NCBI GenBank assembly: GCA_043821705.1 | Contig: JBDRCN010000031.1 | Span: forward strand, 1 to 50,818 | Origin: Candidatus Omnitrophota bacterium | Lineage (GTDB): Bacteria; Omnitrophota; Gorgyraeia; Gorgyraeales; Gorgyraeaceae | DNA length: 50,818 nt | Direction of reading: 5' to 3' | Shown here: positions 2,997-28,838 of the stretch, one piece after another | How positions within the stretch are numbered: position 1 is the stretch's first letter | Layout: the number at the start of each line of letters is the position of its first letter | The notes under the pieces: generated by a model | Told to the model about the DNA's origin: nothing | The model's input: the letters and a program-made list of their open reading frames with translations, nothing else | Database searches by the model: none | Made by a program: the position numbers and the translations under genes

Positions 2997-4391
2997 ATGA
3001 TAAAAAAGACCTTATATTTCTTAAAAACCTTTGAAGTAAAAGTCATATTGATCTTGATCATAGCTATGCTGTCCATAGGTATCATGGGGAATGTCTTGGT
3101 GCATAAATTTGCCCTTGATTCACACTTCAATCAATTGCGCGACAAGTTAAAGATAATAGCTAGTACAACTGCATTAAGTATAGATGTAGACATGCTTCTC
3201 GAAGTCCCGTTAAATAAAGAGGGCGTAAATACCGAACCGTTCAAGAAAATTGTTAAAAAATTACAAAAGATAAAACAGCAAAACTCGCTTATACGCTATA
3301 TCTATATAATGACGAAGACTGACCAAGAAGGTGTGTGGCAGTTCATGGTGGATCCAGAACCAGTTGAAGAGGGCAATGAAGATGCTACAGCTTATCCTGG
3401 AGATAAATACGATGCTTCACGTTTTCCTGAGATGTTGAAAGCCTTTGACGGGCCATCTGCAGATATAAGATTAGAGGTAGACGAGTGGGGTGTTACATTG
3501 TCTGGCTACGCACCTATTTATGACAAAGACAACAAGGCTATAGCTATGCTAGGGGTAGACATGCTGGCTTCTGATGTATACCTGACGCAAAAGATAGTAC
3601 ATCGAAGAATGGTTTTTGTGTTGACACTAGGCATTATTTTATCAATGATATTCGGGCCATTATTTGCAAAGAGGATCACGGGCCCGCTCAAAAAATTGAT
3701 GGAAGGGACCAGGCGCATAAGTATGGGGGATCTGGGGTATAAAGTCAAAGCAGAAGGCAGTAACGAGGTAAGAGAGCTTGCAGAGTCTTTTAATACTATG
3801 GCAGATGAACTTTCCAGATCACAGAAAAAGAATAGCAGTTATTTTTATGATGTTATCCAGTCTATGGTGCGCATAGTAGAGGCAAAAGATCATTACACTA
3901 GGGGCCACTCGGAGAGAGTGGCAGAATATGCAGAGATGATAGCATCTAGTATGGCGCTTTCTCAAGACCAGATAGAGATAATAAAAGAGACAGCCATGAT
4001 CCACGATATAGGCAAATTAGGTATAAAAGATGATATACTCAATAAGAAGGGTAAGCTTACTGATGATGAGTGGGAGATGATCAAAAAGCATCCTGTTATT
4101 GGGGAGGACATAATAAAACCTGTCTCGCTTAACTCTGAAGTCCTGGCAATGATAAGGGGGCATCATGAACGACACGATGGGCTTGGCTATCCTGATGGTT
4201 TAAAAGGAGAGGATACCAATCTCTTTGCCCAGATCATATGCGTGGTAGATGCTTATGATGCTATGATATCATCCAGGGCGTACAGGCAAGCCATGCCAAA
4301 AGAAAAGGCAGTCGATGAATTAAAAAAGAACAAAGGCACGCAGTTTAACTCAAGGATCGTAGACATCTTCCTAAAGATCCTGGAAGCATAA
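2997..4391 (+). CDS. Membrane HAMP + HD-GYP c-di-GMP phosphodiesterase
   Basis: Two TM helices flanking a Cache-like sensor, HAMP, YTRGHSERV, HDIGK, HHERHDGLGYPDG. Confidence 0.92.
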   Translation: MIKKTLYFLKTFEVKVILILIIAMLSIGIMGNVLVHKFALDSHFNQLRDKLKIIASTTALSIDVDMLLEVPLNKEGVNTEPFKKIVKKLQKIKQQNSLIRYIYIMTKTDQEGVWQFMVDPEPVEEGNEDATAYPGDKYDASRFPEMLKAFDGPSADIRLEVDEWGVTLSGYAPIYDKDNKAIAMLGVDMLASDVYLTQKIVHRRMVFVLTLGIILSMIFGPLFAKRITGPLKKLMEGTRRISMGDLGYKVKAEGSNEVRELAESFNTMADELSRSQKKNSSYFYDVIQSMVRIVEAKDHYTRGHSERVAEYAEMIASSMALSQDQIEIIKETAMIHDIGKLGIKDDILNKKGKLTDDEWEMIKKHPVIGEDIIKPVSLNSEVLAMIRGHHERHDGLGYPDGLKGEDTNLFAQIICVVDAYDAMISSRAYRQAMPKEKAVDELKKNKGTQFNSRIVDIFLKILEA

Positions 4392-4432
4392 TATCCGCTC
4401 CACCCATACAATAAAAATTTCATAAAAAATAG

Positions 4433-4489
4433 TTGACAACCAGGGATTTTTGTATATACTTATGGACATATGAGCATAAGTTCATAAGA
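4433..4489 (+). promoter_or_regulatory. Sigma70 promoter with ArsR/SmtB-type operator
   Basis: TTGACA(4433)-16 bp-TATACT(4455); imperfect palindrome ACATATGAGCATAAGTTCATAAG near 4466-4488, directly upstream of the ArsR gene. Confidence 0.7.
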
Positions 4490-4510
4490 TAAAGAGAAGG
4501 AAGGACTGAT

Positions 4511-4852
4511 ATGCGCCTAAAAAAAGCCCGCCAGATATTAAAAACATTTGCCGACGATACAAGGCTTAGGATAATCAGTCTTTTAAAGGGCAATATATTG
4601 ACCGTGACTGATATATGTGTGGTTTTAAATAAGAAGCAATCGAATGTTTCAAAGCATTTGACAAGGCTGAGATTGACTGGTGTAGTTTCTGATAAGAGGA
4701 AAGGGGCTAATGTAAATTATTGCCTAGCTGACCAGAAGGACCCATCCTGTAAGGCACTTCTTAAGGCTATTACCAATGGACTCTCAGATCTTGAGATCTT
4801 ACAAAAAGACAAGGAGACATTAACTAAACTAAGGAAGAGGAGGACTAGATGA
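4511..4852 (+). CDS. ArsR/SmtB family transcriptional regulator
   Basis: KTFADDTRLRII...LTVTDI...QSNVSKHLTRLR...RKG..VNY wHTH signature. Confidence 0.92.
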   Translation: MRLKKARQILKTFADDTRLRIISLLKGNILTVTDICVVLNKKQSNVSKHLTRLRLTGVVSDKRKGANVNYCLADQKDPSCKALLKAITNGLSDLEILQKDKETLTKLRKRRTR

Positions 4853-5277
4853 CGAGACGTATTTTTGTTTTAGCGATCTTGCTGGTTGTGTCAGCGTTTA
4901 TGTTTACTAATATAGCTTTGCTGAGAGCAGAAGAGCAAGTAGATCTAAGTTATGAAAATGATCTAAATGAGCTTATGAACATGGAAACAGAAGAAGTAAC
5001 TGCCCAGGAAGAGCAATACGCATGGGGAGCAGTAAAGAGTATAACGCCTAGCGAGATCAGTATTTCAGAGTTTGACTATGAGCTGGAAAAAGATGTTGCT
5101 ATAGCGTATGTTATTGATAAAGACACCAAGCTCGACAACTTTAAGTCTATAAGCGAGATATCAATGGGTGACAATGTCGAGGTCGAGTATATACAAAAAG
5201 ACGATCAGAAGATCGCGAAGACCATTGCTTTAGAAAAAGAAGAAACCGATCCAGAACTTATGGAAGGAGCAGAATGA
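4849..5277 (+). CDS. Exported acidic hypothetical protein (OB-fold-like)
   Basis: Signal peptide; WGAVKSI...ISMGDNVEVEY...AKTI pattern; ATGA overlap with the ArsR stop. Confidence 0.75.
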   Translation: MTRRIFVLAILLVVSAFMFTNIALLRAEEQVDLSYENDLNELMNMETEEVTAQEEQYAWGAVKSITPSEISISEFDYELEKDVAIAYVIDKDTKLDNFKSISEISMGDNVEVEYIQKDDQKIAKTIALEKEETDPELMEGAE

Positions 5278-5284
5278 ACTTAAA

Positions 5285-6451
5285 ATGGAGACAGAAAATA
5301 GAGAGACTTCTGTTGTAAATGACGAACCTCCTGGATGTAGCAGCGCTAGTGAAAGTTGGAAATGGCAGTTAATAAATTCAGTAAAAGATCTTGATGTCTT
5401 AAGTGATCTGTTTTATTTTGACGCAGGCAAAAAACAAAGCCTAGAAAGAGTCATAAAGGAGTACCCTTTCAGAGTCACACCATACTATCTCTCACTTATC
5501 AATAAAACTGACCCCGATGATCCTATCAGGAGACAGGCCATACCTTCTCCTGAAGAAGAAAACTTCTATATAGAAGTCCAGAATGACCCTTTAGGCGAAG
5601 AAAAGGATACTGTTATGCCTGGCCTTGTGCATCGTTACCCAGACAGGGTCTTGGTAACTTTGACTAACATGTGCCCAATGCTCTGCAGGCACTGTACAAG
5701 AAAAAGGGAATGGCAAGGAGGGAATTGGGTAAGAAGCCCTAAGGAGCTGGAAGAGATATATAAATACATATTTCTTCATGAAGAAATAACAGATGTTATT
5801 CTTTCCGGAGGAGACCCTTTAATATTATCAACAGAAAAACTGGAAGGGATACTTGCAAGTTTAAGGTCTATAAAACACATAGAGATAGTGAGGATAGGCA
5901 CTCGCTGTCCAGTGGTATTGCCTCAGAGGATAGATGAGAGCTTGGTAGCAGTTTTAAAAAAATACAGGCCTATATGGGTAAATACTCATTTTAATCATCC
6001 GAACGAGATCACTGCTGAATCAAGCAAGGCTTGTGATAGGCTGCTTCTAAACGGGATACAGGTAAATAATCAGACTGTGCTTTTAAAGGGTGTAAATGAT
6101 GACCCTAAGACCATGATAAGGCTTTGTAAAGGCCTTCTAAAGATCGGGGTCAGGCCTTATTATCTTTTTCACTGCGATCCAGTGAGCGGGGCTGGACATT
6201 TCAGGACATCTATAGATAAAGGCCTTAGTATAATAAAGGAGATGAGGGGTTTCATATCAGGGTTAGCAGTGCCTACATACGTGGTAGATGGCCTGGAAGG
6301 CCAGGGAAAAGTGCCTTTGCAGCCAGATAACCTGGTCTCTAAGGAAAAGGATTATTTTACACTAAGAGGATATAAAGGAGAGGCCTTTAACTACTATAAC
6401 ATCGAGGAAAAAGAACATGAAAATAGGCATAACTTACAATCTAAAAGATGA
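5285..6451 (+). CDS. kamA: KamA family radical SAM/PLP aminomutase (lysine 2,3-aminomutase-like)
   Basis: HRYPDRVL, CPMLCRHC, SGGDPL, PVVLPQRI, HFNHP, NQTVLLKGVND, PYYLFHCD, GQGKVP (PLP lysine). Confidence 0.92.
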   Translation: METENRETSVVNDEPPGCSSASESWKWQLINSVKDLDVLSDLFYFDAGKKQSLERVIKEYPFRVTPYYLSLINKTDPDDPIRRQAIPSPEEENFYIEVQNDPLGEEKDTVMPGLVHRYPDRVLVTLTNMCPMLCRHCTRKREWQGGNWVRSPKELEEIYKYIFLHEEITDVILSGGDPLILSTEKLEGILASLRSIKHIEIVRIGTRCPVVLPQRIDESLVAVLKKYRPIWVNTHFNHPNEITAESSKACDRLLLNGIQVNNQTVLLKGVNDDPKTMIRLCKGLLKIGVRPYYLFHCDPVSGAGHFRTSIDKGLSIIKEMRGFISGLAVPTYVVDGLEGQGKVPLQPDNLVSKEKDYFTLRGYKGEAFNYYNIEEKEHENRHNLQSKR

Positions 6452-7451
6452 TCCGTTCTTTGCTGGACTTTCGAACAAGGAGAACTCCGAAGAATTTGAT
6501 TCTATAGAGACCATCCATGCTATAAGTAATGTGTTCAAGAAGAATGGTTTCGAGGTAGTCGAGCTAGGCGGCAATTTAGATATAGTAGAAAAGTTGAAAA
6601 AAGAAAAAGTATTCTTTGTATTTAATATAGCAGAAGGGTATTATGGAAGGAACAGGGAATCTACTATACCTTCGATATTAGAGATGCTGAACACACCTTA
6701 TTCAGGCTCAGACCCCTTGACGCTCGGGCTGGCGCTGGATAAAGTAGCCAGCAAGAAGATACTGCAATATGCTAAGGTACAGACACCTAGTTATTGGGTA
6801 ATAAAAAAAGAAGAAGACCTGTTGGATGTAGAATGCAGGCTCAGGTTCCCTATGATAACAAAGCCTGCGTGGGAAGGTTCCAGTAAAGGTATATATGATT
6901 CCTCCAAGGTGTTTGATAAGGAAGGCCTTGTAAAAAGCATAAAGACGCTTTTAAAAAAATATCCAAAACAACCCATCCTGGTGGAAGAGTATATTAAAGG
7001 CAGGGAGATAACAGCTGCTGTCATAGGAAATGAAAAACCAGAGATATTAGGACTGATGGAGATGGTAAATAAAGATAAGGCCAAAGATGATTTTTTCTAT
7101 TCGCTAGAGACCAAAAGGAACTGGGAAGACCTGGTAGAGTATAAATCTCCTCCAGAACTGCCTCAGGCTTTAGAACTACGCATAAAACGCCAAGCGATCG
7201 TTGCTTTTAAGGAATTTGGCTGCAGGGATATAGCGAGGATAGATTTTAAGGTCTCAGAGTACAATGAACCATTTGTCCTGGAGATAAATCCATTACCAGG
7301 ACTTTCGCCTAAATATGGGGACTTGGTCATAATGGCTAAGATGAATAATATTGGACACGAGGAGCTTGTATTAAAGATACTGAATGCTGCGTTCTCCAGG
7401 TACAATATAAAAAATATAGCTCCCAAACCTTCTGAGGCTTGCGGGATATGA
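6417..7451 (+). CDS. D-Ala-D-Ala ligase-like ATP-grasp enzyme
   Basis: FNIAEG, GSDPLTL..ALDK, KPAWEGSSKGI, VEEYIKGREI, ARIDF, LEINPLPGL. Confidence 0.9.
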   Translation: MKIGITYNLKDDPFFAGLSNKENSEEFDSIETIHAISNVFKKNGFEVVELGGNLDIVEKLKKEKVFFVFNIAEGYYGRNRESTIPSILEMLNTPYSGSDPLTLGLALDKVASKKILQYAKVQTPSYWVIKKEEDLLDVECRLRFPMITKPAWEGSSKGIYDSSKVFDKEGLVKSIKTLLKKYPKQPILVEEYIKGREITAAVIGNEKPEILGLMEMVNKDKAKDDFFYSLETKRNWEDLVEYKSPPELPQALELRIKRQAIVAFKEFGCRDIARIDFKVSEYNEPFVLEINPLPGLSPKYGDLVIMAKMNNIGHEELVLKILNAAFSRYNIKNIAPKPSEACGI

Positions 7452-8431
7452 AAACATATGATTTTGCGCTCACTTGGAATAGTGACAAAAAAGAAAAATT
7501 TGTAAAATGGTTAAAGGAAGAATCTTCTTTAAAAGGCCTTAGGTTTTTGCTTATAGACAGCAATAATGCATCGATGGTAATAGATGACCTGGAAAAGGGC
7601 AAGTTACAAATAAAGTTCTTGTTGGATAATGAGGCAAATTATAATGATCCTAAAGATGTGTTTGCCAGATTATGCTATGCAGCAAAGGATGCGAATGGGT
7701 TCGTGGTATGTGATCCTGATGACGCAAGGCAGGCTTCAAATAAAGCAATAGCTCATTATGACCTCGTCAATGCAAATATTGTAGTTCCTTATACCATTGT
7801 TGTCAGGAATTGGAAGCCAGATGACACTTCTCTCACAAAAGCAGAGTTAAAAAAGTTAGGCGCACCTTTTATCATAAAGCCTGCTTCAGGGTTTGGACAG
7901 AAGGGTGTGGTAAAGAACGCTACTGGGTCTATCGCTGAGATAGCTGAAGCAAGACATTTTAATAGAGGCGATGACTTTCTTATACAGGAGAAGATAGAAC
8001 CAGTGTTTTTCGGGGAAAAGCAAGGCTGGTTCAGGGTATATTTTCTATTCGGAGAGATAATACCATGTTGGTGGAATACTGAAAATGGCCATTATGAGCA
8101 TCTTACACTAAAAGATATGCATAGTTACAAATTGACGCCATTAGCTAGAATAACCTCTAAGATCGCAGAGTTGACCAATATGGTATTTTTTACAACAGAA
8201 ATAGCAATAACTGGCAAAGGAAAAGACAGGCGTTTTGTCTGCATAGATTATGTAAATGACCAGCCAGAACTATGTGTTCGTCCAGGTAAAGGCGGGCCAG
8301 TACACGAAGTAGTAAAACATATAGCAGAAAGAATAATAGATATCGTATGGAGGATGCAAAAAGCAAAGCAGCAGGACATACACAGGTCTATATGGCTTGC
8401 AAAAGCGCAGACAGAAGATGAAACCATTTAA
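7448..8431 (+). CDS. Second, divergent ATP-grasp fold protein
   Basis: NKAIAH..L....I.VPYT, PFIIKPASGFG, FLIQEKI, FRVYF, IDYVND; ATGA coupling to the upstream stop. Confidence 0.78.
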   Translation: MKTYDFALTWNSDKKEKFVKWLKEESSLKGLRFLLIDSNNASMVIDDLEKGKLQIKFLLDNEANYNDPKDVFARLCYAAKDANGFVVCDPDDARQASNKAIAHYDLVNANIVVPYTIVVRNWKPDDTSLTKAELKKLGAPFIIKPASGFGQKGVVKNATGSIAEIAEARHFNRGDDFLIQEKIEPVFFGEKQGWFRVYFLFGEIIPCWWNTENGHYEHLTLKDMHSYKLTPLARITSKIAELTNMVFFTTEIAITGKGKDRRFVCIDYVNDQPELCVRPGKGGPVHEVVKHIAERIIDIVWRMQKAKQQDIHRSIWLAKAQTEDETI

Positions 8432-9359
8432 CCCCAGAAAACCCTTGAGACTTAATATAGGAGACACTATTGGTATAGTAGCTCCTGCATGGTCATTTGA
8501 CCCTGAAAATTTTAAAAGAGGAGTGGCCAAGCTTTGTAAGTTAGGTTTTAAGTTAAAATATAGCCAGAATATCTTTAAAAAACACTGGTCCATGGCTGGC
8601 TATGACCGTGAGCGGGCAGAGGAAATAAACAAGATGTTCGGGGATAAAAAGATCAAGGCTATATTGTGCGCAAAAGCAGGCTATGGCTCAATAAGGACAA
8701 TACCCTACCTGGATAAAAGGATAATAAGAAACAATCCAAAGATATTTATTGGCTATAGTGATATAACAATACTTCTTTCTTATCTCTACAAGACAGCCTA
8801 TATGGTAGTTTTTCACGGACCCGTGGTATCAGGAGAGATCCATGATAATATGAATCCAATGACATTGGAACATTTGTTCCGTGCGATCACTCAGCCCTAT
8901 CCACTTGGCAAGAAAAGATTTTCTGCATTAAAGACCCTGCATTCAGGAAAGGCAAGCGGCATTCTGGTAGGAGGGAATATCTCCCTTCTTCTAAACACTA
9001 TAGGGACAGGCTATGAAATAGACACAAAAAATAAGATCTTGTTCCTGGAAGATATAGGTGAAGACCTGGAGACAATAGATAATTATCTTATGCACCTTAA
9101 ATTAGCTGGGAAATTCAAGAAAGTAAGAGGCATAGTATTCGGCAGGATGCTTGGCTGTAAAGATAGCTCTGGAAATCAATATAGTGTAAAACAAGTATTG
9201 AAAGACATGTTAAAAGATGTAAAGGTCCCGATAATATATGGATTTCCTTCAGGCCATAGGATATCCGGGGATGTGAATGTCACACTTCCATTCGGTGTCT
9301 TAGCTACGCTCAATGCCAATGAACCCAGCCTATCTATTGACGAATCAGCTGTTGTTTGA
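8418..9359 (+). CDS. S66 family peptidase (LD-carboxypeptidase/MccF-like)
   Basis: GDTIGIVAPA, GYSDIT (Ser), LFLED (Glu), GFPSGH (His); start at ATG 8418. Confidence 0.92.
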   Translation: MKPFNPRKPLRLNIGDTIGIVAPAWSFDPENFKRGVAKLCKLGFKLKYSQNIFKKHWSMAGYDRERAEEINKMFGDKKIKAILCAKAGYGSIRTIPYLDKRIIRNNPKIFIGYSDITILLSYLYKTAYMVVFHGPVVSGEIHDNMNPMTLEHLFRAITQPYPLGKKRFSALKTLHSGKASGILVGGNISLLLNTIGTGYEIDTKNKILFLEDIGEDLETIDNYLMHLKLAGKFKKVRGIVFGRMLGCKDSSGNQYSVKQVLKDMLKDVKVPIIYGFPSGHRISGDVNVTLPFGVLATLNANEPSLSIDESAVV

Positions 9360-9429
9360 AGAGATTAGCTCTTTACTTACCTATAATTAAATAATACAAT
9401 GATAAAGATAAGCCACAGGGGTGTAAAAA

Positions 9430-10113
9430 ATGAACAAAGTATTTAAAACGGTTAAGGCATTATCTATTTTACTACTTGTAGTAGGGATCGGGACAGTAGC
9501 AGTAGTGTTTTACTTAAAGTTCTCCAGCGAGAATAAAATATTACATCAGATCATATCCAGGCTAGAGTCTGATTCCAGGATCGCTGAAGTCCTTGTGACA
9601 GGGGTTAATTACAATGAGGCCACAGGAAAGACGATTACTACTATTAAATTCTTGGAATATGATTCTTTAGGGGCCCCTCTGAAACCCAGGTATTTTACTT
9701 TTTCAGGTAATATTATCCAGTTTCAGTCTTTGGTGATACGTTTTGATGATAGGTACATCAGGATGGGCGATAAGCTTAGAGGAAAAAGCATTTATCTATT
9801 CTGGAAAGTATTTATGTTAGACGGGAAAAATACTGAAGAATATGAGATAACCAGTGTGAATAGTATCCCAGAAGGTTATAAATTGAATACTACAGAACAT
9901 GCTTTTGAGAACAATATATGGGAAAAGTTCTGGGATTATGCGTTAAAGGAAAAGGAAAAAGGCAGGCTAGGTATTAAAAATGCCCAGATCGAAGCCCCTG
10001 GCCTGATGTTTGTTCCTGGGATACTCTATTCGATAAAGATAGAGCACGATGGCGGCATGAGAATAGATACTAATAAATTGCCTGAGATCTTAAAAGGCGA
10101 GACAATACTATAA
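9430..10113 (+). CDS. Membrane-anchored hypothetical protein
   Basis: 227-aa ORF with one N-terminal TM helix; no recognised motif. Confidence 0.75.
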   Translation: MNKVFKTVKALSILLLVVGIGTVAVVFYLKFSSENKILHQIISRLESDSRIAEVLVTGVNYNEATGKTITTIKFLEYDSLGAPLKPRYFTFSGNIIQFQSLVIRFDDRYIRMGDKLRGKSIYLFWKVFMLDGKNTEEYEITSVNSIPEGYKLNTTEHAFENNIWEKFWDYALKEKEKGRLGIKNAQIEAPGLMFVPGILYSIKIEHDGGMRIDTNKLPEILKGETIL

Positions 10114-10149
10114 AACTATTTATACTACTTTTGAAATGCGAGGGGCATT

Positions 10150-10731
10150 ATGATAAATAATATTTTTTTAGCATTTATCCCTATCTTTGTAGCAGTCGAC
10201 GCAATAGGCGTCTTGCCGCTATTCATATCTTTTACAGAAGGACTTACTAGAGAAGAAAGAAAAAACATAGTAAAGCAGTCACTCGTAACAGCGCTTATGG
10301 TAGCGTTTTGCTTTATATTCCTTGGAAAATTCATCTTCAAGGTCTTAGGTATAATGGTAGAGGACTTTATGATAGCTGGAGGAGCTATCCTGTTTTGCAT
10401 AGCGATAATCGATATAATAAATCCCAATAAGAAGCGTCGACTTCCCTCTAAAGAATTGGGTTTTGTACCATTAGGTACGCCTTTAATAGTAGGGCCAGCT
10501 GTCCTTACGACATCCTTGATGATAATCCCTAGTTATGGCATCTACGCTACTTTAATATCAATAGTGGCCAATGTTCTTATAGCAGGGCTAGTGTTTTTAT
10601 TCTCTGAGAACCTGATAAAGGTATTTGGCGAAGCAGGCACAAAGGCTTTATCAAAGATAATGAGCCTCTTACTGGCTGCTATAGCAGTTATGATGATCAG
10701 AAAAGGGCTTTTTTTGATACTGGGATTATAG
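10150..10731 (+). CDS. MarC family integral membrane protein
   Basis: FIPIFVAVDAIG, F.IAGG..LF, VPLGTPLIVGPA, K.MSLLLAAIAV. Confidence 0.9.
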   Translation: MINNIFLAFIPIFVAVDAIGVLPLFISFTEGLTREERKNIVKQSLVTALMVAFCFIFLGKFIFKVLGIMVEDFMIAGGAILFCIAIIDIINPNKKRRLPSKELGFVPLGTPLIVGPAVLTTSLMIIPSYGIYATLISIVANVLIAGLVFLFSENLIKVFGEAGTKALSKIMSLLLAAIAVMMIRKGLFLILGL

Positions 10732-12023: not shown

Positions 12024-12692
12024 ATGCGTATACTGTTAGTTGAAGACGAAGAGAAGATAGCTAGTTTTCTCAAGCGAGGCCTGAAAGAAGAACACTATGC
12101 TGTTGATGTAGCTAGTGACGGAGAAAAGGCCTTATATCTAGCCAATATAAATAAATATGATTTGATAATCCTTGATATCATGCTGCCCTGCAAAGATGGT
12201 ATTTATATATGTAGGGAACTGCGTTCAAAAGAGGAGGATACTCCTATTTTAATGCTTACAGCAAGAGATGGCGTAAGCGACAGGGTAAAAGGCCTGGATG
12301 CAGGAGCTGATGACTACCTTACAAAGCCATTTGCATTTGACGAACTCCTGGCGCGGTTAAGGGCGCTTCTACGTAGAAAAAGGGCAGTAAAAGCCACTGT
12401 TCTCAAGATAGCGGATCTGGAGCTGGATCAGATCACCCATAAGGTAAGGAGAGCTGGTAAAGAAATATCATTAACCAGTAAGGAATATGCCTTACTGGAA
12501 TATCTTATGTTGAATAGAGATCAAGTCGTAACGAGAACCATGATATCGGAACACGTATGGAATGATGACTTTGACTCATTTACCAATGTAATAGATGTCT
12601 ATGTGAATTATCTGCGCAATAAGATAGATAAAGGCTTTAAGAAGCCCCTTCTCCAAACTCTTAGAGGCAGAGGATACATCCTGAAGGGATAG
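12024..12692 (+). CDS. OmpR family response regulator (CusR/MprA-like)
   Basis: [61 protein letters not shown]. Confidence 0.96.
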
Positions 12693-12697
12693 ATCAA

Positions 12698-14176
12698 GTG
12701 AAAACCAATTCGATCAGATTTAAGATATCTGTATTGTATACAGCTTTATTAGGGGTGATCTTGCTTATATTTAGCAGTATCCTTTATTTTAGCCTGCAGT
12801 GGACACTTTACGATGACCTAGACGACGAACTTAGGATAAAGGCAGACGCAATAAGTAATGCTATAACTTCATATATAGAAATTCTTGGGACTGACAGAGA
12901 AACACTCCTATTTACTGTAAAGCGTATAATTTCTAAGGAAGGCGAGTATGCTGGCTACAGCAAGATAATGGATCTGGACCGTCAATGGGCGCAGAAGGCT
13001 GATAAGCTGGATATAGAAAACGATTATGTTGATTTTATAGGCCCGGGCAGAGAGATACTCACAGGGTCAGGCGACCTATCCAAAGAACATTTTTCTATCT
13101 TGTCACGAAGCATAAAAAGCAAAAAGGAAGATGCTGAAAGTTTTGTTAGCATAAAATTCGAAAATCGCAACTTACGCATGATCAATAAACCTTTCGTACA
13201 TGCTGGAGAAAGATATGTAATACAGGTGGCTACTTCTTTGAAACCAGTAAGCGAGATACTTAAGATGCGGCTTATCTTTATCTTATTTAGCATACCACCT
13301 ATTCTTATCTTTGCGAGCTTGATAGGCTATTTTTTAACCACCAAGAGTTTAAAGCCAGTAAAACAAGTGACTTTGGCAGCACAAAGCATTACACATAAAG
13401 ACTTGAGCGCTAGGGTCGAGTCTGAGCAGGCAGATGAAGAGATGAGGTATCTGGTCGATACCTTTAACAGCATGATCGAACGCCTAGAGAAATCATTTAA
13501 GCATATATCTGAATTCACTTCTCATGTTGCCCACGAGCTAAAAACCCCCTTGGCAATATTACGAGGAGAGACAGAGCTTATTTTACGCAAAGATCGTTCT
13601 CCTGAAGAATACAGGCAGGTAATGCAGGGGAACTTGGATGAGATACATCGTATGCTGAAGATCGTCGAGAATCTTCTGCTCTTAAGCAGGATCGAACATC
13701 AACCTGATATGTTTAAGTTTGAGGGCATCGCAGTCAGGCAGTTCTTGACAGATATATACGAAGAGATCCGTATTCTTGCTTCACAAAAAAATATCTCTGT
13801 AAATCTTACTTTGCCAGAACATGATTCTCTTCTTAATGCAGACAGATTAAATCTGAGAAGACTTTTTTTAAATCTAGTGAGTAATGCTATAAAATTTACC
13901 CCAAAAAACGGAACGATAAAGATAGAGGCCAGCTATAAAGGTAAAAAAACCTTGATATCTATCATAGATACAGGCATAGGTATTCCAGAGGAAAATATGG
14001 AGAAGATATTCGATAGATTCTTCTCCTATGGCAATGCCAAGCTGAACCTAGAGCAGAGCACTGGATTAGGGTTAAATCTTGCCCTTGGCATAGCCAAGGC
14101 CCATAGAGGCGATATTACTGTAAAAAGCGAATCAGGAAAAGGCTCTATATTCACCGTAGTTTTGCCCTCTGCATAA
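12698..14176 (+). CDS. HAMP sensor histidine kinase
   Basis: Two TM, HAMP, HELKTPL H-box, NLVSNAIKF, DTGIGI, IFDRF, GLGL; GTG start. Confidence 0.95.
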   Translation: MKTNSIRFKISVLYTALLGVILLIFSSILYFSLQWTLYDDLDDELRIKADAISNAITSYIEILGTDRETLLFTVKRIISKEGEYAGYSKIMDLDRQWAQKADKLDIENDYVDFIGPGREILTGSGDLSKEHFSILSRSIKSKKEDAESFVSIKFENRNLRMINKPFVHAGERYVIQVATSLKPVSEILKMRLIFILFSIPPILIFASLIGYFLTTKSLKPVKQVTLAAQSITHKDLSARVESEQADEEMRYLVDTFNSMIERLEKSFKHISEFTSHVAHELKTPLAILRGETELILRKDRSPEEYRQVMQGNLDEIHRMLKIVENLLLLSRIEHQPDMFKFEGIAVRQFLTDIYEEIRILASQKNISVNLTLPEHDSLLNADRLNLRRLFLNLVSNAIKFTPKNGTIKIEASYKGKKTLISIIDTGIGIPEENMEKIFDRFFSYGNAKLNLEQSTGLGLNLALGIAKAHRGDITVKSESGKGSIFTVVLPSA

Positions 14177-14212
14177 AAATCGTCAGGACCCGCTATCAAT
14201 CAGATTAAAATA

Positions 14213-14258
14213 TTTTAATGTTATTTTAACCTTCTTTTAATGTCTTCTGGCGTATACT
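14213..14258 (+). promoter_or_regulatory. Three 11-bp direct repeats (OmpR/PhoB-type site) upstream of a -10 TATACT
   Basis: TTTTAATGTTA TTTTAACCTTC TTTTAATGTCT (14213-14245); TATACT at 14253-14258; no canonical -35. Confidence 0.65.
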
Positions 14259-14292
14259 TGATCGTAATAAATACTACAAAAGGAAGTGACCT

Positions 14293-14649
14293 ATGAAAAA
14301 GATCCTCATCATAGACGATGAAAAGAAAATAAGGAATATCTATAAAAGATTATTATCTTTGGATGGGTATATTGTCATTGAGGCTCCGGATGCTTCTATA
14401 GGCTATGATATTTTACTAAAAGAAAAGGTCGACCTTGTATTACTAGATATAAATATGCCCGAAGTGGATGGAGACATCGTAACAGAGCTCATAGAGGCGT
14501 TTCATCTCAAGACAAAGATAATAGTTGCCAGTGTAAGGCCGATCAGCGAGCAGAAAGAGATGATCAAGGGCGCTCTTGATTATTATGACAAATCAGAAAG
14601 CCTTGATCTCTTATATAAAAAGATAGAAGCGCATCTGGGAGTGGTATAG
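14293..14649 (+). CDS. Stand-alone receiver domain protein
   Basis: ILIIDDE, LLDINMPEVDG, YYDKS. Confidence 0.9.
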   Translation: MKKILIIDDEKKIRNIYKRLLSLDGYIVIEAPDASIGYDILLKEKVDLVLLDINMPEVDGDIVTELIEAFHLKTKIIVASVRPISEQKEMIKGALDYYDKSESLDLLYKKIEAHLGVV

Positions 14650-15006
14650 GTGAAAAAAATAGTTGTTATTGATGATGAGCCAAAGATAAGAAACTTGTTC
14701 TGCCGGACATTGCACGAAACAGGATACGAGGCCCTTGAGGCAGAGGACGGCAAAGAGGGCTTGAGATTATTAAAAGAGGATAAAAATATAGGCCTTGTCA
14801 TACTGGATATTAGATTGCCAAAGATAAACGGCCTCGCAATATTCGATGCTATCAAGACATATTCGCCTCAGGTAAAGGTCATAATATCAAGCGTCTACTC
14901 TCACGATGAACAGGAATTCCTTATAGGGGGTGCTGACGATTATTATTATAAATCAGACAGTATTTTGGACCTCATAGATAAAGTGTATAACTGCATAAAT
15001 GAATAG
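14650..15006 (+). CDS. Stand-alone receiver domain protein
   Basis: IVVIDDE, ILDIRLPKING, GADDYYYKS; GTG start abutting the upstream stop. Confidence 0.9.
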   Translation: MKKIVVIDDEPKIRNLFCRTLHETGYEALEAEDGKEGLRLLKEDKNIGLVILDIRLPKINGLAIFDAIKTYSPQVKVIISSVYSHDEQEFLIGGADDYYYKSDSILDLIDKVYNCINE

Positions 15007-15976
15007 AATAGAAAAAAATACAATGTCAAAAAGCCTGGCAGGATTAATATCTCTGGAAAAAGAAGATATGATCTCTGTCTGGGTAAAGGATATCAAGCTC
15101 TTGGGAGGAAGTTACTCGCAGGTTAGGAATTCCGAGCTTAGAGAGTTATGCAGGGAGTTTTTAGATTCTCTCTCGGAGCTATTGCTCCACAATGATTTCT
15201 TGAAACTACGTATCTTCATAGAAAAGATAAGCCGTATCCGCTCAGAGCAGGGTTTCAGGTTGTCAGAGGTCCAACGCGCATACTATGGCTTTTACAATGT
15301 CATAACGCCGCGCGTGACACAATGGGACGCGGACGGAAAGATAGATAGAGTTATTCTGGATAAACTGCACGAGATCTTGATCAATACCTTGTTTGAGCTC
15401 TCTGAATCTTATCACAGAAGGCTAAATGAGAAGACGGATAAATATATCTCCCAGATGGAAAAGTTGAATAGCTCTCTGAAGGAGAACTCTATAACTGATG
15501 AATTAACCAGTTGTTACAATTACAGATATTTTCAGCACATGATCGCAATTGAGCTGGAAAGAGCTTTGCGTTATGATCGTCCGCTGTCTCTCGTGATGTT
15601 TGACATAGATCATTTCAAAAATATCAATGATGAGTTTGGCCATCTTATCGGGGATGAAGTCTTGAATTTGATCGGAAAGGCACTGCTTAAAAACCTAAGG
15701 CCCAGCGACCTGGCCTTTCGCTACGGCGGGGAAGAATTTGCTGTAATGCTTCCGGAAACAGAAGAGAGAAGAGCTTTTATCTGCGCAGAGCGTATAAGAA
15801 AAGAGGTCTCCAACATAAATTTCCTTATAAAAGGAAAAGAACTTTCTATAACGATAAGCGGGGGCATAGCTGGTTTTTCTAAAAATACCCCTGATAAGTC
15901 TTTTTTAATAAACAGCGCGGATAAGGCATTGTACAACGCAAAGAGGGAAGGCAGAAACAGGATCCTATTTTATTGA
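14999..15976 (+). CDS. Diguanylate cyclase with RsbRD-N/globin-like N-terminal domain
   Basis: DIDHFKNIND.FGH..GDEVL, RPSD I-site, RYGGEEF; helical N-terminus with R..QGF.LSEV. Confidence 0.92.
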   Translation: MNRIEKNTMSKSLAGLISLEKEDMISVWVKDIKLLGGSYSQVRNSELRELCREFLDSLSELLLHNDFLKLRIFIEKISRIRSEQGFRLSEVQRAYYGFYNVITPRVTQWDADGKIDRVILDKLHEILINTLFELSESYHRRLNEKTDKYISQMEKLNSSLKENSITDELTSCYNYRYFQHMIAIELERALRYDRPLSLVMFDIDHFKNINDEFGHLIGDEVLNLIGKALLKNLRPSDLAFRYGGEEFAVMLPETEERRAFICAERIRKEVSNINFLIKGKELSITISGGIAGFSKNTPDKSFLINSADKALYNAKREGRNRILFY

Positions 15977-15995
15977 TACCCATAAGGAGCGCACC

Positions 15996-16358
15996 ATGAA
16001 AAGGATACTTTTAGTAGATGATGAGAAAAAGATAAGAAAGATCTACAATAAGTTGCTTACGCAGGAAGGTTACAATGTAATTGAAGCAGTAAATGCTATG
16101 CAGGCCAGCGAGATATTGGTCAGGGAAAAGGTGGATCTGGTCTTACTTGATATAAATATGCCTGAAATTGACGGGGGTATTCTGTATGATATCATGGAGC
16201 TATTCCATAAAGACGTTAAAGTGGTAGTTTCAAGCGTGTATTTGCTTGATGAGCAGAGAGAGAGAATAAAAGGAGCTTATGATTATCATGATAAATCTCA
16301 AGGGAACGAGATACTGCTGGATAAGATAAGGACGGCGATTGAAAACAGCACTACTTGA
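15996..16358 (+). CDS. Stand-alone receiver domain protein (paralog of 14293-14649)
   Basis: ILLVDDEKKIR.IY, EKVDLVLLDINMPE.DG shared with the first receiver. Confidence 0.9.
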   Translation: MKRILLVDDEKKIRKIYNKLLTQEGYNVIEAVNAMQASEILVREKVDLVLLDINMPEIDGGILYDIMELFHKDVKVVVSSVYLLDEQRERIKGAYDYHDKSQGNEILLDKIRTAIENSTT

Positions 16359-26260: not shown

Positions 26261-27343
26261 ATGTCAAAACTCATAAAAAATATGTCAAGGAAGATGAAAT
26301 TAGCGCCTCCGGGTGCACTTATACATATCGGGGAACAGAAGACAGAAAAAGTAAAGATAACGATCATAGATTATGACGAGACTAAGTTCCAGGAAAAAAC
26401 AATAGCCTCAGTGAAAGAATGCGCTCCTTTTAAAGATAAACCTACGGTCACATGGATAAATATAGACGGCATCCACGAAGTGAACATTATAGAGGAGATA
26501 GGCAGGCAATATGGGCTTCACCCTCTTATCATGGAGGATATTCTTAACACAGGCCAGAGGCCGAAGATAGAAGATTCTGAGGATTTTATCTTTATAGTGT
26601 TAAAGATGCTTCAATGTGACAATAAAGATGATGTCATGACTGAGCAGGTAAGCTTGATCTTAGGAAATAATTTCGTGATCTCTTTTCAGGAGAAAGAAGG
26701 GGATGTCTTTAATAATATAAGAGAAAGGATAAGGAGCTCAAAAGGCCGCATAAGAAAAATGGGAGCAGATTATCTTTTATATAGCTTGATAGACGCTATA
26801 GTTGATAATTATTTTGTGATATTAGAAAAGATGGGAGACAAGATCGAAGGCATGGAAGAAGAACTTATCTCAAGGCCTGTGCCAGCTACGCTTCAGAGCA
26901 TACATAATATAAAAAGAGATATTATATTTTTACGTAAGAGCGTCTGGCCATTGAGGGAGGTCATAGGTAATCTAGAAAGAGGAGAATCCGTTCTTGTTAA
27001 GGAAACTACAGGCATATTCTTGAGGGATCTATATGACCATACCATACAGGTCATAGATACTATCGAGACTTTTAGAGACATGGTCTCAGGCATGCTGGAT
27101 ATATACTTGTCCAGCATAAGCAATAAGATGAATGAGATCATGAAGGTCTTGACCATGATAGCCACTATATTTATTCCCATAACATTTGTTGTAGGTGTCT
27201 ATGGTATGAACTTTAATACAGGGGCCTCTAGATGGAATATGCCTGAGCTTAATTCCAGGTTCGGCTACATAGGTGTGTGGGTAGTCATGCTTTCAATAGC
27301 AGCGGTAATGCTTATGTATTTTAAGAGAAAAAAATGGTTCTAG
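26261..27343 (+). CDS. corA: Magnesium/cobalt transporter CorA
   Basis: PPG.L.HIG, WINIDG, LHPL..EDI, QRPK.E, YGMNF, MPEL. Confidence 0.96.
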   Translation: MSKLIKNMSRKMKLAPPGALIHIGEQKTEKVKITIIDYDETKFQEKTIASVKECAPFKDKPTVTWINIDGIHEVNIIEEIGRQYGLHPLIMEDILNTGQRPKIEDSEDFIFIVLKMLQCDNKDDVMTEQVSLILGNNFVISFQEKEGDVFNNIRERIRSSKGRIRKMGADYLLYSLIDAIVDNYFVILEKMGDKIEGMEEELISRPVPATLQSIHNIKRDIIFLRKSVWPLREVIGNLERGESVLVKETTGIFLRDLYDHTIQVIDTIETFRDMVSGMLDIYLSSISNKMNEIMKVLTMIATIFIPITFVVGVYGMNFNTGASRWNMPELNSRFGYIGVWVVMLSIAAVMLMYFKRKKWF

Positions 27344-27344
27344 G

Positions 27345-28838
27345 ATGAACATATTATTTAAATCTAAAGATGAGATAAGCGATAGTGAATTAAAGATAGG
27401 CATGAGGTCTGTTGTCATGGACGGGGTAATGAGTCACCTGATGGGTGTCTTGACAGGTGGGGTATTCCTTGTCGCTATTGCATTGAAATTAGGCGCAACA
27501 AATTTTCAGATAGGCCTTTTGGCAGCAATACCACCTTTAATGCAGCTTGTCCAGCTGCCAGCTGTATTTTTAATAGAAAAGCTCCATAGCAGAAAGACAG
27601 TCGCAGTATATTCTGCTCTAATAAGTAGATTTGCTTTTTTGTTAGTGGCATTAAGCCCGCTTTTATTCCCGCCTTCTATAGGGCTATTAATACTGATTTT
27701 TGCGGTTTTATTCCAATCTGGATTTGGGGGAATAGGAGGCTGTGCATGGAATTCTTGGATGAGGGATCTAATACCTGAGAATCAGATGGGGAGTTTTTTT
27801 TCAAATAGACTGCGCATTGCTACTTTTCTGGGTATTTTAGTAAGCCTTTTAGCCAGTATATTGATTGATTTCTGGAAAGTCCATTTCCCTTCATACGAGA
27901 TATACGCTTATTCAGGACTTTTCGGAGCAGGCTTTATATTAGGTATGATAGGGATATTATACCTATCAAAAACACCTGAGGTAAAAATGATACCTCAGAA
28001 GACAGAGTTTATAAAACTTCTTAGCCAACCGTTCAAGGATGTAAATTTCAGGCGCCTCATGCTTTTTTTAGGCTCATGGAGTTTCGCAGTCAATCTCGCA
28101 GCTCCATTTTTTACAGTCTATATGTTAAGCAGGATCGGTCTTAGCATGTCTATGGTAGTCATTTTAAGCATAGTAAGCCAGGCATTTAATTTCATGTTTC
28201 TTTCTCTTTGGGGTAAGTGGTCAGACAAGTTCAGCAATAAATCTGTCCTGGCTGTAAGCGGGCCTCTTTTTATATTCAGTATACTTGGATGGACTTTTAC
28301 CACTATGCCGGAGAAATATTTTTTGACTTTTCCGATCTTGATAGCTATCCACATAGTTATGGGTATAGCTACAGCAGGCGTAGGTATAGCCTCTGGGAAT
28401 ATAGGCCTTAAGCTTGCGCCAAAAGGCCAAGCTACTGCGTATCTAGCAACAAATGCGCTTGTAAATTCATTTGCAGCTGGTATAGCGCCTATACTAGGAG
28501 GAATATTCGCAGATTTTTTTGCAGCGCGAAAACTGTCGCTTGTAATAAATTGGACATCTCCTAGTAGGGAGCTGGCTATACAGGCATTTAGTCTCAGGCA
28601 TTGGGATTTCTTTTTTGGGCTGGCATTTTTAATAGGCTTATACTCACTGCATAGATTGACCATGGTAAAAGAAGAAGGCGAAGTAGATGATGAAGTAGTG
28701 CGCGCTGAGTTCATAGCTGCTATCAAAAGGCCCATAAGAAGCCTTTCTTCTGGAGCAGGGATATTCCAGGTCATATCTTACCCATATTTTTTTATAAAAA
28801 AAGGGATCAAGAGCATGAAAAGGGTAGTTGAAAAATAA
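27345..28838 (+). CDS. MFS transporter
   Basis: About 12 TM helices; W.SWMRDLIP...G.FF..R, WGKWSDKFSNK. Confidence 0.88.
   Translation: MNILFKSKDEISDSELKIGMRSVVMDGVMSHLMGVLTGGVFLVAIALKLGATNFQIGLLAAIPPLMQLVQLPAVFLIEKLHSRKTVAVYSALISRFAFLLVALSPLLFPPSIGLLILIFAVLFQSGFGGIGGCAWNSWMRDLIPENQMGSFFSNRLRIATFLGILVSLLASILIDFWKVHFPSYEIYAYSGLFGAGFILGMIGILYLSKTPEVKMIPQKTEFIKLLSQPFKDVNFRRLMLFLGSWSFAVNLAAPFFTVYMLSRIGLSMSMVVILSIVSQAFNFMFLSLWGKWSDKFSNKSVLAVSGPLFIFSILGWTFTTMPEKYFLTFPILIAIHIVMGIATAGVGIASGNIGLKLAPKGQATAYLATNALVNSFAAGIAPILGGIFADFFAARKLSLVINWTSPSRELAIQAFSLRHWDFFFGLAFLIGLYSLHRLTMVKEEGEVDDEVVRAEFIAAIKRPIRSLSSGAGIFQVISYPYFFIKKGIKSMKRVVEK

Follow-up and report, generated by a model that had tools for sequence, protein, structure and literature searches.

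Few fates are known for beta-lysine: it forms the osmolyte acetyl-beta-lysine, modifies translation elongation factor P (EF-P), takes part in lysine fermentation, and occurs in a few antibiotics, among them streptothricin and viomycin. The AblA/AblB system yields N-epsilon-acetyl-beta-lysine, a compatible solute of methanogens and some bacteria. Other systems pair a ligase that extends a carboxylate with a hydrolase that removes the added residue. This is the case for LysW/LysX/LysK, where LysK acts on LysW, and the same pairing recurs with RimK and its trimming partner and with tubulin tyrosine ligase and the carboxypeptidases of the tubulin tyrosination cycle. The present analysis concerns a four-gene cluster at positions 5285 to 9359 of a 50,818-nucleotide contig from a Candidatus Omnitrophota bacterium of the family Gorgyraeaceae (JBDRCN010000031.1, here contig C31; assembly GCA_043821705.1, 1.41 Mb and 91% complete), and this whole stretch is called the window below. 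On its plus strand, the cluster encodes a lysine-type KamA-family 2,3-aminomutase dependent on radical S-adenosylmethionine (SAM) and pyridoxal phosphate (PLP) (5285..6451), a Ddl-like ATP-grasp ligase (6417..7451), AG2, a divergent ATP-grasp ligase of the RimK/LysX/GshB/Ddl fold (7439..8431), and an S66 serine peptidase of the LdcA/MccF family (8397..9359). The four genes are two modules, KamA with the Ddl-like ligase and AG2 with S66, which are joined in some lineages only. The reading that we tentatively favour, holding it slightly short of an even chance, is that two ATP-grasp steps would build an undescribed beta-lysine peptide, that S66 would undo the AG2 step, and that the product would serve in osmotic or ionic stress. 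The portion of the full-text literature covered by our searches held no description of a KamA/ATP-grasp system.

The locus resembles AblA/AblB in placing, after a lysine-type aminomutase of the KamA family, an enzyme expected to make an amide on the aminomutase product, and in its stress-related neighbours. It differs in that AblB is absent, that KamA scores below the AblA cut-off (429.9 vs 525.4 bits, lysine 2,3-aminomutase equivalog TIGR03820), and that the amide-forming enzymes are ATP-grasp ligases, so that the partner would be an amino acid or another carboxylate rather than acetyl-CoA. A second ligase and a peptidase are also present.

KamA passes the model of its family (TIGR00238, 323.9 bits for a cut-off of 199.2), carries the Radical_SAM and LAM_C domains, and is the sole KamA homologue of the genome. 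It aligns with the lysine 2,3-aminomutase of Clostridium subterminale (2A5H; phmmer, E=2.1e-105) at the CxxxCxxC cluster motif (C-P-M-L-C-R-H-C), at the Arg that follows it, and at the lysine that we take to bind PLP. The aspartates of its HCD and VVDG motifs fall on Asp293 and Asp330 of 2A5H, presumably the residues that bind the epsilon-ammonium group, and the proposal made earlier from the letters of the window, that both lysine-type aspartates are retained, is thus borne out. The same source had observed that the window holds no efp/epmA, ablB or lysine-fermentation genes. In the whole genome, 91% complete, efp is on another contig (C16), no EpmA match exceeds its cut-off (best 218.3 bits for a cut-off of 286.9), and AblB has no match to TIGR03827, a search whose control was positive in 6 of 14 genomes. 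The matches to the EpmA model, open frames of 502 and 467 residues, look by their length like tRNA synthetases. BKACE has no match in the genome either; the lysine 5,6-aminomutase family gave none, in a search whose positive control likewise matched nowhere. Because EpmA, AblB and BKACE are missing from the genome, the known uses of beta-lysine do not appear to be encoded.

The Ddl-like ligase carries the C-terminal domain of D-alanine–D-alanine ligases (PF07478, Dala_Dala_lig_C), and scores below the cut-offs of all Ddl models (best 175.6 bits for a cut-off of 243). It shares with Ddl and with VanA/B/C the fold, this C-terminal domain and the R-x-D and E-x-N motifs for Mg and ATP. When 43 KamA-associated ligases are aligned with the genome's own housekeeping Ddl, these two motifs are kept, whereas family-specific motifs stand where Ddl has its N-terminal GGxSxE, 'ALHG' and omega-loop K-Y motifs, which have substrate roles in that enzyme. 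Contig C35 encodes a canonical Ddl in which every signature motif is present. By its motifs, the KamA-linked protein is a predicted Ddl paralogue and not the housekeeping enzyme. The genome encodes a third Ddl-like ATP-grasp protein of 357 residues (G000:C1:129920-130990) with an E-A-N-A-N-P motif, which is neither the housekeeping Ddl nor of the KamA-linked type.

The pairing of KamA with this ligase was followed by searching 401 genomes of the phylum with each protein of the cluster. KamA homologues occur in 191 genomes and Ddl-like matches at E<=1e-30 in 221, those near 1e-31 to 1e-37 being possibly housekeeping Ddl. Of 150 KamA matches listed, at least 112 are accompanied on their contig by a listed Ddl-like match no more than 4 kb away, a lower bound since 150 of the 353 ligase matches are listed. 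By open reading frame (ORF) calls, the pair is present in 28 of 31 KamA loci, and two of the three misses (in genomes G050 and G218) have a ligase match beside KamA. A second Ddl-like gene is found in nine of the 31 loci and a small GNAT gene in three (L074, L089 and L090). Two genomes encode the pair as a single ORF (G145, 731 residues; G397, 745 residues). Beyond the phylum, a collection of 5.8 billion proteins holds 155 long KamA homologues at E<=1e-40. Among the 120 listed, 80 carry PF07478 and 32 a GNAT domain (Dehalococcoides, Chloroflexota), the two main architectures and a further likeness to AblA/AblB; five have no further domain, and PurD, an intein and a LacI-type domain are found once each. 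The source names of the PF07478 fusions include Omnitrophota, Ca. Magnetoovum, Eubacteriales, Syntrophobacteraceae and Deltaproteobacteria. These fusions indicate that KamA is regularly partnered with an enzyme that forms amides, be it an acetyltransferase or a Ddl-like ligase, and, judged by domain content, the latter holds the place of the AblB-type acetyltransferase. From phylum-wide adjacency and the many fusions, the natural reading is that the compound made by the aminomutase is joined into an amide or peptide, and the Ddl-like ligase probably uses that compound. An aminomutase wired to ATP-grasp ligases is a pairing found in about half of a candidate phylum and, through the fusion proteins, in other phyla.

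Several observations accompany these proteins. One KamA homologue (P0091) is split by an intein with Hom_end_hint, LAGLIDADG_3 and Intein_splicing domains. The KamA–PurD fusion (P0092) was considered as a link to a PurD-like ligase found beside AG2 in some loci. This link was dropped, since the ligase half of the fusion exceeds the cut-off for true purD (322.8 vs 288 bits) and shares only 24% identity with the AG2-linked protein, whose score in the purD model is 113 bits. Three genes for metallopeptidases of the TldD/PmbA type immediately precede KamA and the ligase in five loci of another class of the phylum, each from a different family (L069-L073, in G188, G050, G014, G042 and G100). In L075 and L090, the KamA-linked Ddl-like gene is directly followed by a gene for a protein of 456-482 residues with a weak LmbE/BshB1-type deacetylase N-terminus, and in L075 a second Ddl-like gene comes after it.

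The third gene had been taken for a second ATP-grasp, a claim that structure prediction upholds despite the absence of any Pfam match at E<=0.001 (ATP-grasp_3 appears at E=0.047). AG2 remains far below the cut-offs of the RimK family (TIGR00768, E 3e-6, 26.8 bits for 143.4), glutathione synthetase (NF009110, E 2.5e-5, 23.4 bits for 408) and LysX (18.6 bits for 275.6). Its AlphaFold model, built from 29 homologues, has a pLDDT of 89.8 and a pTM of 0.89, and the top Foldseek matches of this model are Ddl, ArgX/LysX, RimK and PsnB (probability 1.00, TM by target 0.58-0.75, 11-16% identity), with the ArgX/LysX and RimK structures 3vpb, 3vpd, 5k2m and 5zct among the best. An Atlas structure search with AG2 also returned RimK-type matches, and in a profile search the top PDB match was ArgX (E=0.0051). 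Fifteen columns are invariant in the 29 homologues. Members of the family are mostly named 'hypothetical protein' in their source records. By its predicted structure, AG2 is thus a real ATP-grasp enzyme, of a family that has no Pfam model. At E<=0.001, AG2 has matches in 31 of the 401 genomes of the phylum; with the threshold set at E<=1e-26, 28 remain. The proposed arrangement of two ligases in series recalls GshA and GshB (and GshF) in glutathione synthesis, and AG2 shares the fold and a weak similarity to glutathione synthetase and RimK; here, by contrast, the first ligase is Ddl-like and not GshA, no thiol chemistry is implied, and AG2 is far under the family cut-offs.

The peptidase carries both S66 domains (PF02016, 117.7 bits; PF17676, 118 bits), and its Ser (GYSD), Glu (LEDIGE) and His (SGH), which we take to be the catalytic triad, align with the MccF-like protein 4E5S. 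Both domains and the three residues are thus kept as in LdcA and MccF. Its best PDB sequence matches are MccF-like proteins (4e5s, E=5.4e-33; MccF 3tla); its length is LdcA-like and one LdcA chain (6uuk) aligns end to end. It differs from LdcA in scoring 139.1 bits against a cut-off of 378 (equivalog NF008424) and in being limited, within the phylum, to AG2-bearing genomes: homologues were found in 18 of the 401 genomes, and all 18 are AG2-positive. Kinship among genomes inflates any statistic on this co-occurrence, but the pattern is absolute in this sample. It argues that S66 is the dedicated partner of AG2 rather than a general murein recycler. The earlier note had cast this enzyme as providing editing or immunity; strict co-occurrence recasts it as the hydrolytic counterpart of AG2, and immunity to a toxic product may still be a role. 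The window therefore holds, beside KamA and its ligase, an ATP-grasp family that has no Pfam model together with a peptidase confined in the phylum to AG2-bearing genomes, and their partnership gives S66 enzymes a likely substrate class beyond murein and microcin C.

The four-gene order recurs in related genomes and metagenome contigs, and the arrangement is not due to chance. Across 33 AG2 loci, S66 is adjacent in 16 (once as a 70-residue remnant), KamA and its ligase in 8, and a PurD-like ATP-grasp in 5; KamA is encoded in 20 of the 28 AG2-positive genomes. Eighty metagenome contigs carry an AG2 relative, 39 of them with at least 1 kb on both sides. In these 39, S66 lies within 1.5 kb of AG2 in 13, a Ddl-like gene within 1.5 kb in 11, KamA within 3 kb in 11 and a PurD-like gene nearby in two; KamA, ligase and S66 are all present in five, and none of these neighbours is found in 18. 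Where AG2 is at least 55% identical to that of the window (10 of these contigs), a Ddl-like gene is present in 10/10 and S66 in 4/10. A maximum-likelihood tree built on 31 AG2 proteins places the window in a clade of five with 100/100 support; all five are linked to KamA and ligase, and they stem from different families within the phylum. Elsewhere in the tree, clades are linked to S66 or to the PurD-like gene, and the fusion-bearing locus L043 falls in a clade different from that of the window. A survey of neighbourhood conservation, which had been suggested as a check, thus gave a divided answer: KamA and the Ddl-like gene are co-conserved, but the four genes as one unit are not. The same division holds for the wider proposal that beta-lysine is ligated into a short peptide. 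The lysine-type residues, the lack of the known fates and the KamA-ligase link speak for it, and the idea of a single four-gene unit has to be given up.

The PurD-like ATP-grasp, a protein of 430-466 residues scoring 113 bits in the purD model (cut-off 288), lies beside AG2 in L046, L048, L051, L054 and L055 and is also present in the AG2 contigs L136, L140, L159 and L162. It accompanies AG2 mostly where no KamA was found (genomes G045, G275 and G394), as if replacing the module of KamA and ligase.

The synthesis that we favour would run as follows. The analysis shows the gene content, the conserved residues, the conservation as two modules, the fusions, the fold of AG2 and the strict co-occurrence of S66 with AG2; every substrate, the order of the steps and the role of the product are inferred. 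KamA, as its conserved residues suggest, would convert L-lysine to beta-lysine. The Ddl-like ligase, given its adjacency and fusions to KamA, would link beta-lysine through an amide to a second amino acid or a carboxylate. AG2, from its fold and the order of the genes, would extend the carboxylate of this product by a further residue, much as GshB finishes glutathione. S66, acting as a cytoplasmic carboxypeptidase, would take the residue added by AG2 off again and so turn over or adjust the pool, a role suggested by its co-occurrence with AG2 and by the chemistry of the family. The operon would be controlled by an ArsR-type repressor, and a transporter of the NAAT/MarC family may carry the product; a MarC/NAAT homologue (PF01914, TIGR00427) is encoded at 10150..10731 (plus strand) of the window, and one adjoins the cluster in at least seven loci (L035, L048, L074, L100, L108, L140 and L168). 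The likeliest role of the product, by analogy, would be that of an osmotic or ionic stress protectant, as a compatible solute or an organic cation. If so, the cluster would bear on the ways in which uncultured bacteria of very small size withstand salt and ion stress. Its enzymes are few, soluble and accessible to in vitro work.

This role is favoured because of the AblA/AblB analogy and because of the genes that surround AG2 in relatives. These include genes for the mechanosensitive channels MscL (L001) and MscS-type (L039, L056, L175), TrkH (L057, L144), Na+/H+ exchangers (L040, L062, L063), the trehalose synthase TreT (L001, L036, L048) and a c-di-AMP cyclase with YbbR (L052, L053, L119, L144, L152), as well as CorA, MgtC, a transporter of the major facilitator superfamily (MFS), Hsp20 and MsrAB. 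In BLAST searches with one example each of ten stress families, a set that leaves out GARS-like and MsrAB, 24 matches were found among 465 ORFs of AG2 loci versus 3 among 495 ORFs of KamA loci that lack AG2. Such neighbours are a hint of an osmotic or ionic role. Of the osmolyte, natural product and peptidoglycan roles entertained in the earlier note, the osmolyte is the one best backed by context and the peptidoglycan role is unlikely. The genome itself has about one copy each of the TrkH, TreT, c-di-AMP cyclase (DAC), CorA, MgtC and MFS genes. The window carries a CorA gene (336.9 bits for a cut-off of 200.75) and a 497-residue MFS-like gene at 26261-28838, 17 kb downstream of the cluster, and their products are 47% and 49% identical to those of the CorA-MFS pair beside AG2 in L043, L044, L055 and L056.

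A number of results weigh against this favoured synthesis and its role. KamA stays below the cut-off of the lysine equivalog, as stated above, and reaches neither the glutamate (412 of 650 bits) nor the arginine equivalog (393.9 of 600); its substrate may instead be arginine or another basic amino acid. AG2 occurs without KamA in 8 of the 28 AG2-positive genomes, and AG2 with S66 also occurs in genomes that have no KamA at all, from which it follows that AG2 is not by nature an enzyme of beta-lysine; each module could have a product of its own. The comparison of stress neighbours was post hoc, its query families having been chosen from AG2 loci and its controls being syntenic close kin. In the main class of the phylum, KamA and its ligase sit in a housekeeping block (Era, Nth, the pair, TypA, YchF-like, PurH, FolC, MnmE), and this block, found around the pair in most of the phylum, offers no osmotic hint. 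Finally, three related loci encode a cysteine-rich micro-protein just upstream of KamA, which favours, in those relatives, a carrier-protein chemistry.

In that chemistry, AG2 would act as LysX/ArgX, RimK or tubulin tyrosine ligase do and place beta-lysine or a conjugate of it on the acidic C-terminal tail of a small carrier or target protein, with S66 releasing or trimming it. The resemblance to LysW/LysX/LysK lies in the pairing of a carboxylate-extending ATP-grasp with a hydrolase that removes the added residue, and AG2 has ArgX/LysX and RimK near the top of its structural matches, with ArgX as its first PDB profile match. The micro-ORFs of L035, L036 and L101 encode 46-50 residues with 7-8 Cys and an acidic tail, and the small secreted protein encoded upstream of KamA likewise belongs to an acidic-tailed family whose members end in E or Y. 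Against this stand the lack of a carrier or substrate protein gene in the window or the genome and the fact that LysK is an M20 enzyme, not S66. The micro-ORF is absent from the window, where 7 nt separate the small protein gene from KamA; neither tblastn (best E 0.06) nor a pattern scan found it elsewhere in the genome, and it is present in only 3 of 14 upstream regions examined. The secreted protein, of 142 residues, has a clear signal peptide and is thus an unlikely target for a cytoplasmic ATP-grasp. No AG2 fusions were found among longer proteins, which is weak evidence. This explanation is unlikely, though of the alternatives it survives best. A related and distinctly unlikely proposal is that AG2 and S66 run a reversible 'tailing' cycle, AG2 adding a residue and S66, as a dedicated carboxypeptidase, removing it, on beta-lysine chemistry borne by the acidic C-terminal tail of a small protein, the window being a version whose carrier is missing or distantly encoded. 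If true, bacteria would here have an equivalent of LysW-type carrier biosynthesis or of the tubulin tyrosination cycle. In relatives, the space from the small acidic protein gene to KamA holds two conserved micro-ORFs (L035:9302-9781, minus strand; L036:5445-5860; L101:538-690): the cysteine-rich one with the acidic tail, in L035, L036 and L101, and a basic one of 45-46 residues, in L035, L036 and L105. The basic one, too, is absent from the window.

The favoured stress-related peptide also has to be weighed against a bioactive one, an antibiotic-like beta-lysine peptide for which S66 would be a self-immunity hydrolase of the MccF type and MarC the exporter. The MccF-like best matches of S66 fit this idea, as does the patchy distribution of AG2 and S66, in 28 and 18 of the 401 genomes and in many families. 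Yet about half of the genomes of this phylum, which are 1-2 Mb in size, contain the core of KamA and Ddl-like ligase, for the most part within the housekeeping block, and the operon lacks a dedicated ABC or MFS exporter as well as precursor and tailoring genes. S66 is of LdcA-like length with its end-to-end LdcA alignment, and the neighbours are stress and ion genes rather than conflict genes, so that an antibiotic is a rather doubtful product.

It is considerably less probable that the cluster modifies or recycles murein stem peptides, with S66 as an LD-carboxypeptidase and the ligases rebuilding or altering the stem. In its favour, murein metabolism is where the S66 and Ddl families are best known, and several loci have a c-di-AMP cyclase/YbbR gene next to AG2-S66. 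The genome nevertheless has its canonical Ddl on contig C35, and the KamA-linked ligase is devoid of those signature motifs. S66 homologues were not found in 383 of the 401 genomes and the remaining 18 are all AG2-positive, a poor fit for a general recycler. No mur, fts or transpeptidase genes were found in the neighbourhoods examined, and beta-lysine is, to our knowledge, not a murein constituent. The least credible alternative is that KamA serves as EpmB and the Ddl-like ATP-grasp loads beta-lysine onto EF-P in place of EpmA, for although the EF-P of the genome keeps a KPGKG loop with a modifiable lysine, no EpmA was found, and KamA adjoins the translational GTPase gene typA in many genomes (within 3 kb here), KamA scores below the EpmB equivalog cut-off (255.8 vs 369.3 bits), efp is on another contig, the TypA adjacency belongs to the long syntenic housekeeping block, the variable extra ligases, GNAT and peptidases suggest small-molecule chemistry, and we know of no ATP-grasp that acylates a protein lysine.

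The layout of the locus agrees with the description of four overlapping genes from which the analysis started: on the plus strand, the KamA, Ddl-like, AG2 and S66 frames overlap as called by 35, 13 and 35 nt. For AG2, the ATG at 7448 is the more likely start, because its relatives align from residue 3-4; the overlap with the Ddl-like gene is then 4 nt. Upstream of KamA lie an ArsR/SmtB-family transcription factor gene (4511..4852, plus strand; HTH_5; NF033788, 66.3 bits for a cut-off of 55) and the gene of the secreted, very acidic 142-residue protein (4849..5277, plus strand), which has a weak DUF5666-like match. These two genes overlap by 4 nt. Packed by overlaps or by the 7-nt gap before KamA, with the best promoter-like site ahead of them, the genes from ArsR to S66 are most likely one operon of six. 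That site, a sigma-70-like TTGACA, 16 nt, TATACT at 4433..4460 (plus strand), agrees with 11 of 12 consensus positions, lies inside the 119-nt gap ahead of the ArsR gene and scores highest of the 24 sites in 4300-10200, where shuffled sequence yields 15.9 sites on average; it is a match to consensus only. For 4400-9400, no RNA record was listed. An inverted repeat at 4459..4488 (14-2-14, 86% complementary, strand-neutral) overlaps its -10 hexamer and is a candidate operator for an ArsR-type repressor, as judged from consensus. ArsR homologues are found upstream of KamA or AG2 in 12 of the 33 AG2 loci (13 members, cluster 3) and also in loci L074 and L088, and the ArsR-family factor is the probable regulator of the operon, as an autoregulated repressor. 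The 142-residue protein is co-conserved with ArsR in seven loci. In the members of its family (L001, L035, L036, L038, L041, L048), a signal peptide is clearly recognisable, one domain is very acidic and the tail ends in E or Y; the family accompanies the ArsR gene even where KamA is absent (L041, L048), and perhaps binds cations.

The GC content is even over the first 40 kb of the window, at 0.37-0.40, and the cluster is not compositionally foreign. Ahead of the ArsR gene, and on the same plus strand, are genes for TypA (580-2463), a CxxC zinc-finger protein (2501-2953) and a HAMP-HD phosphodiesterase (2997-4391). A membrane protein gene without a family (9430-10113, plus strand) separates S66 from MarC. 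Further downstream, at 12024-16358, an OmpR-type regulator, a histidine kinase, three single-domain response regulators and a GGDEF cyclase make up a dense signalling block. The zinc-finger protein, of 150 residues, has a run of HDR tetrapeptide-like repeats (HDRHDRHDRHDR) followed by a CxxC-x17-CxxC treble-clef zinc finger (TIGR04272).

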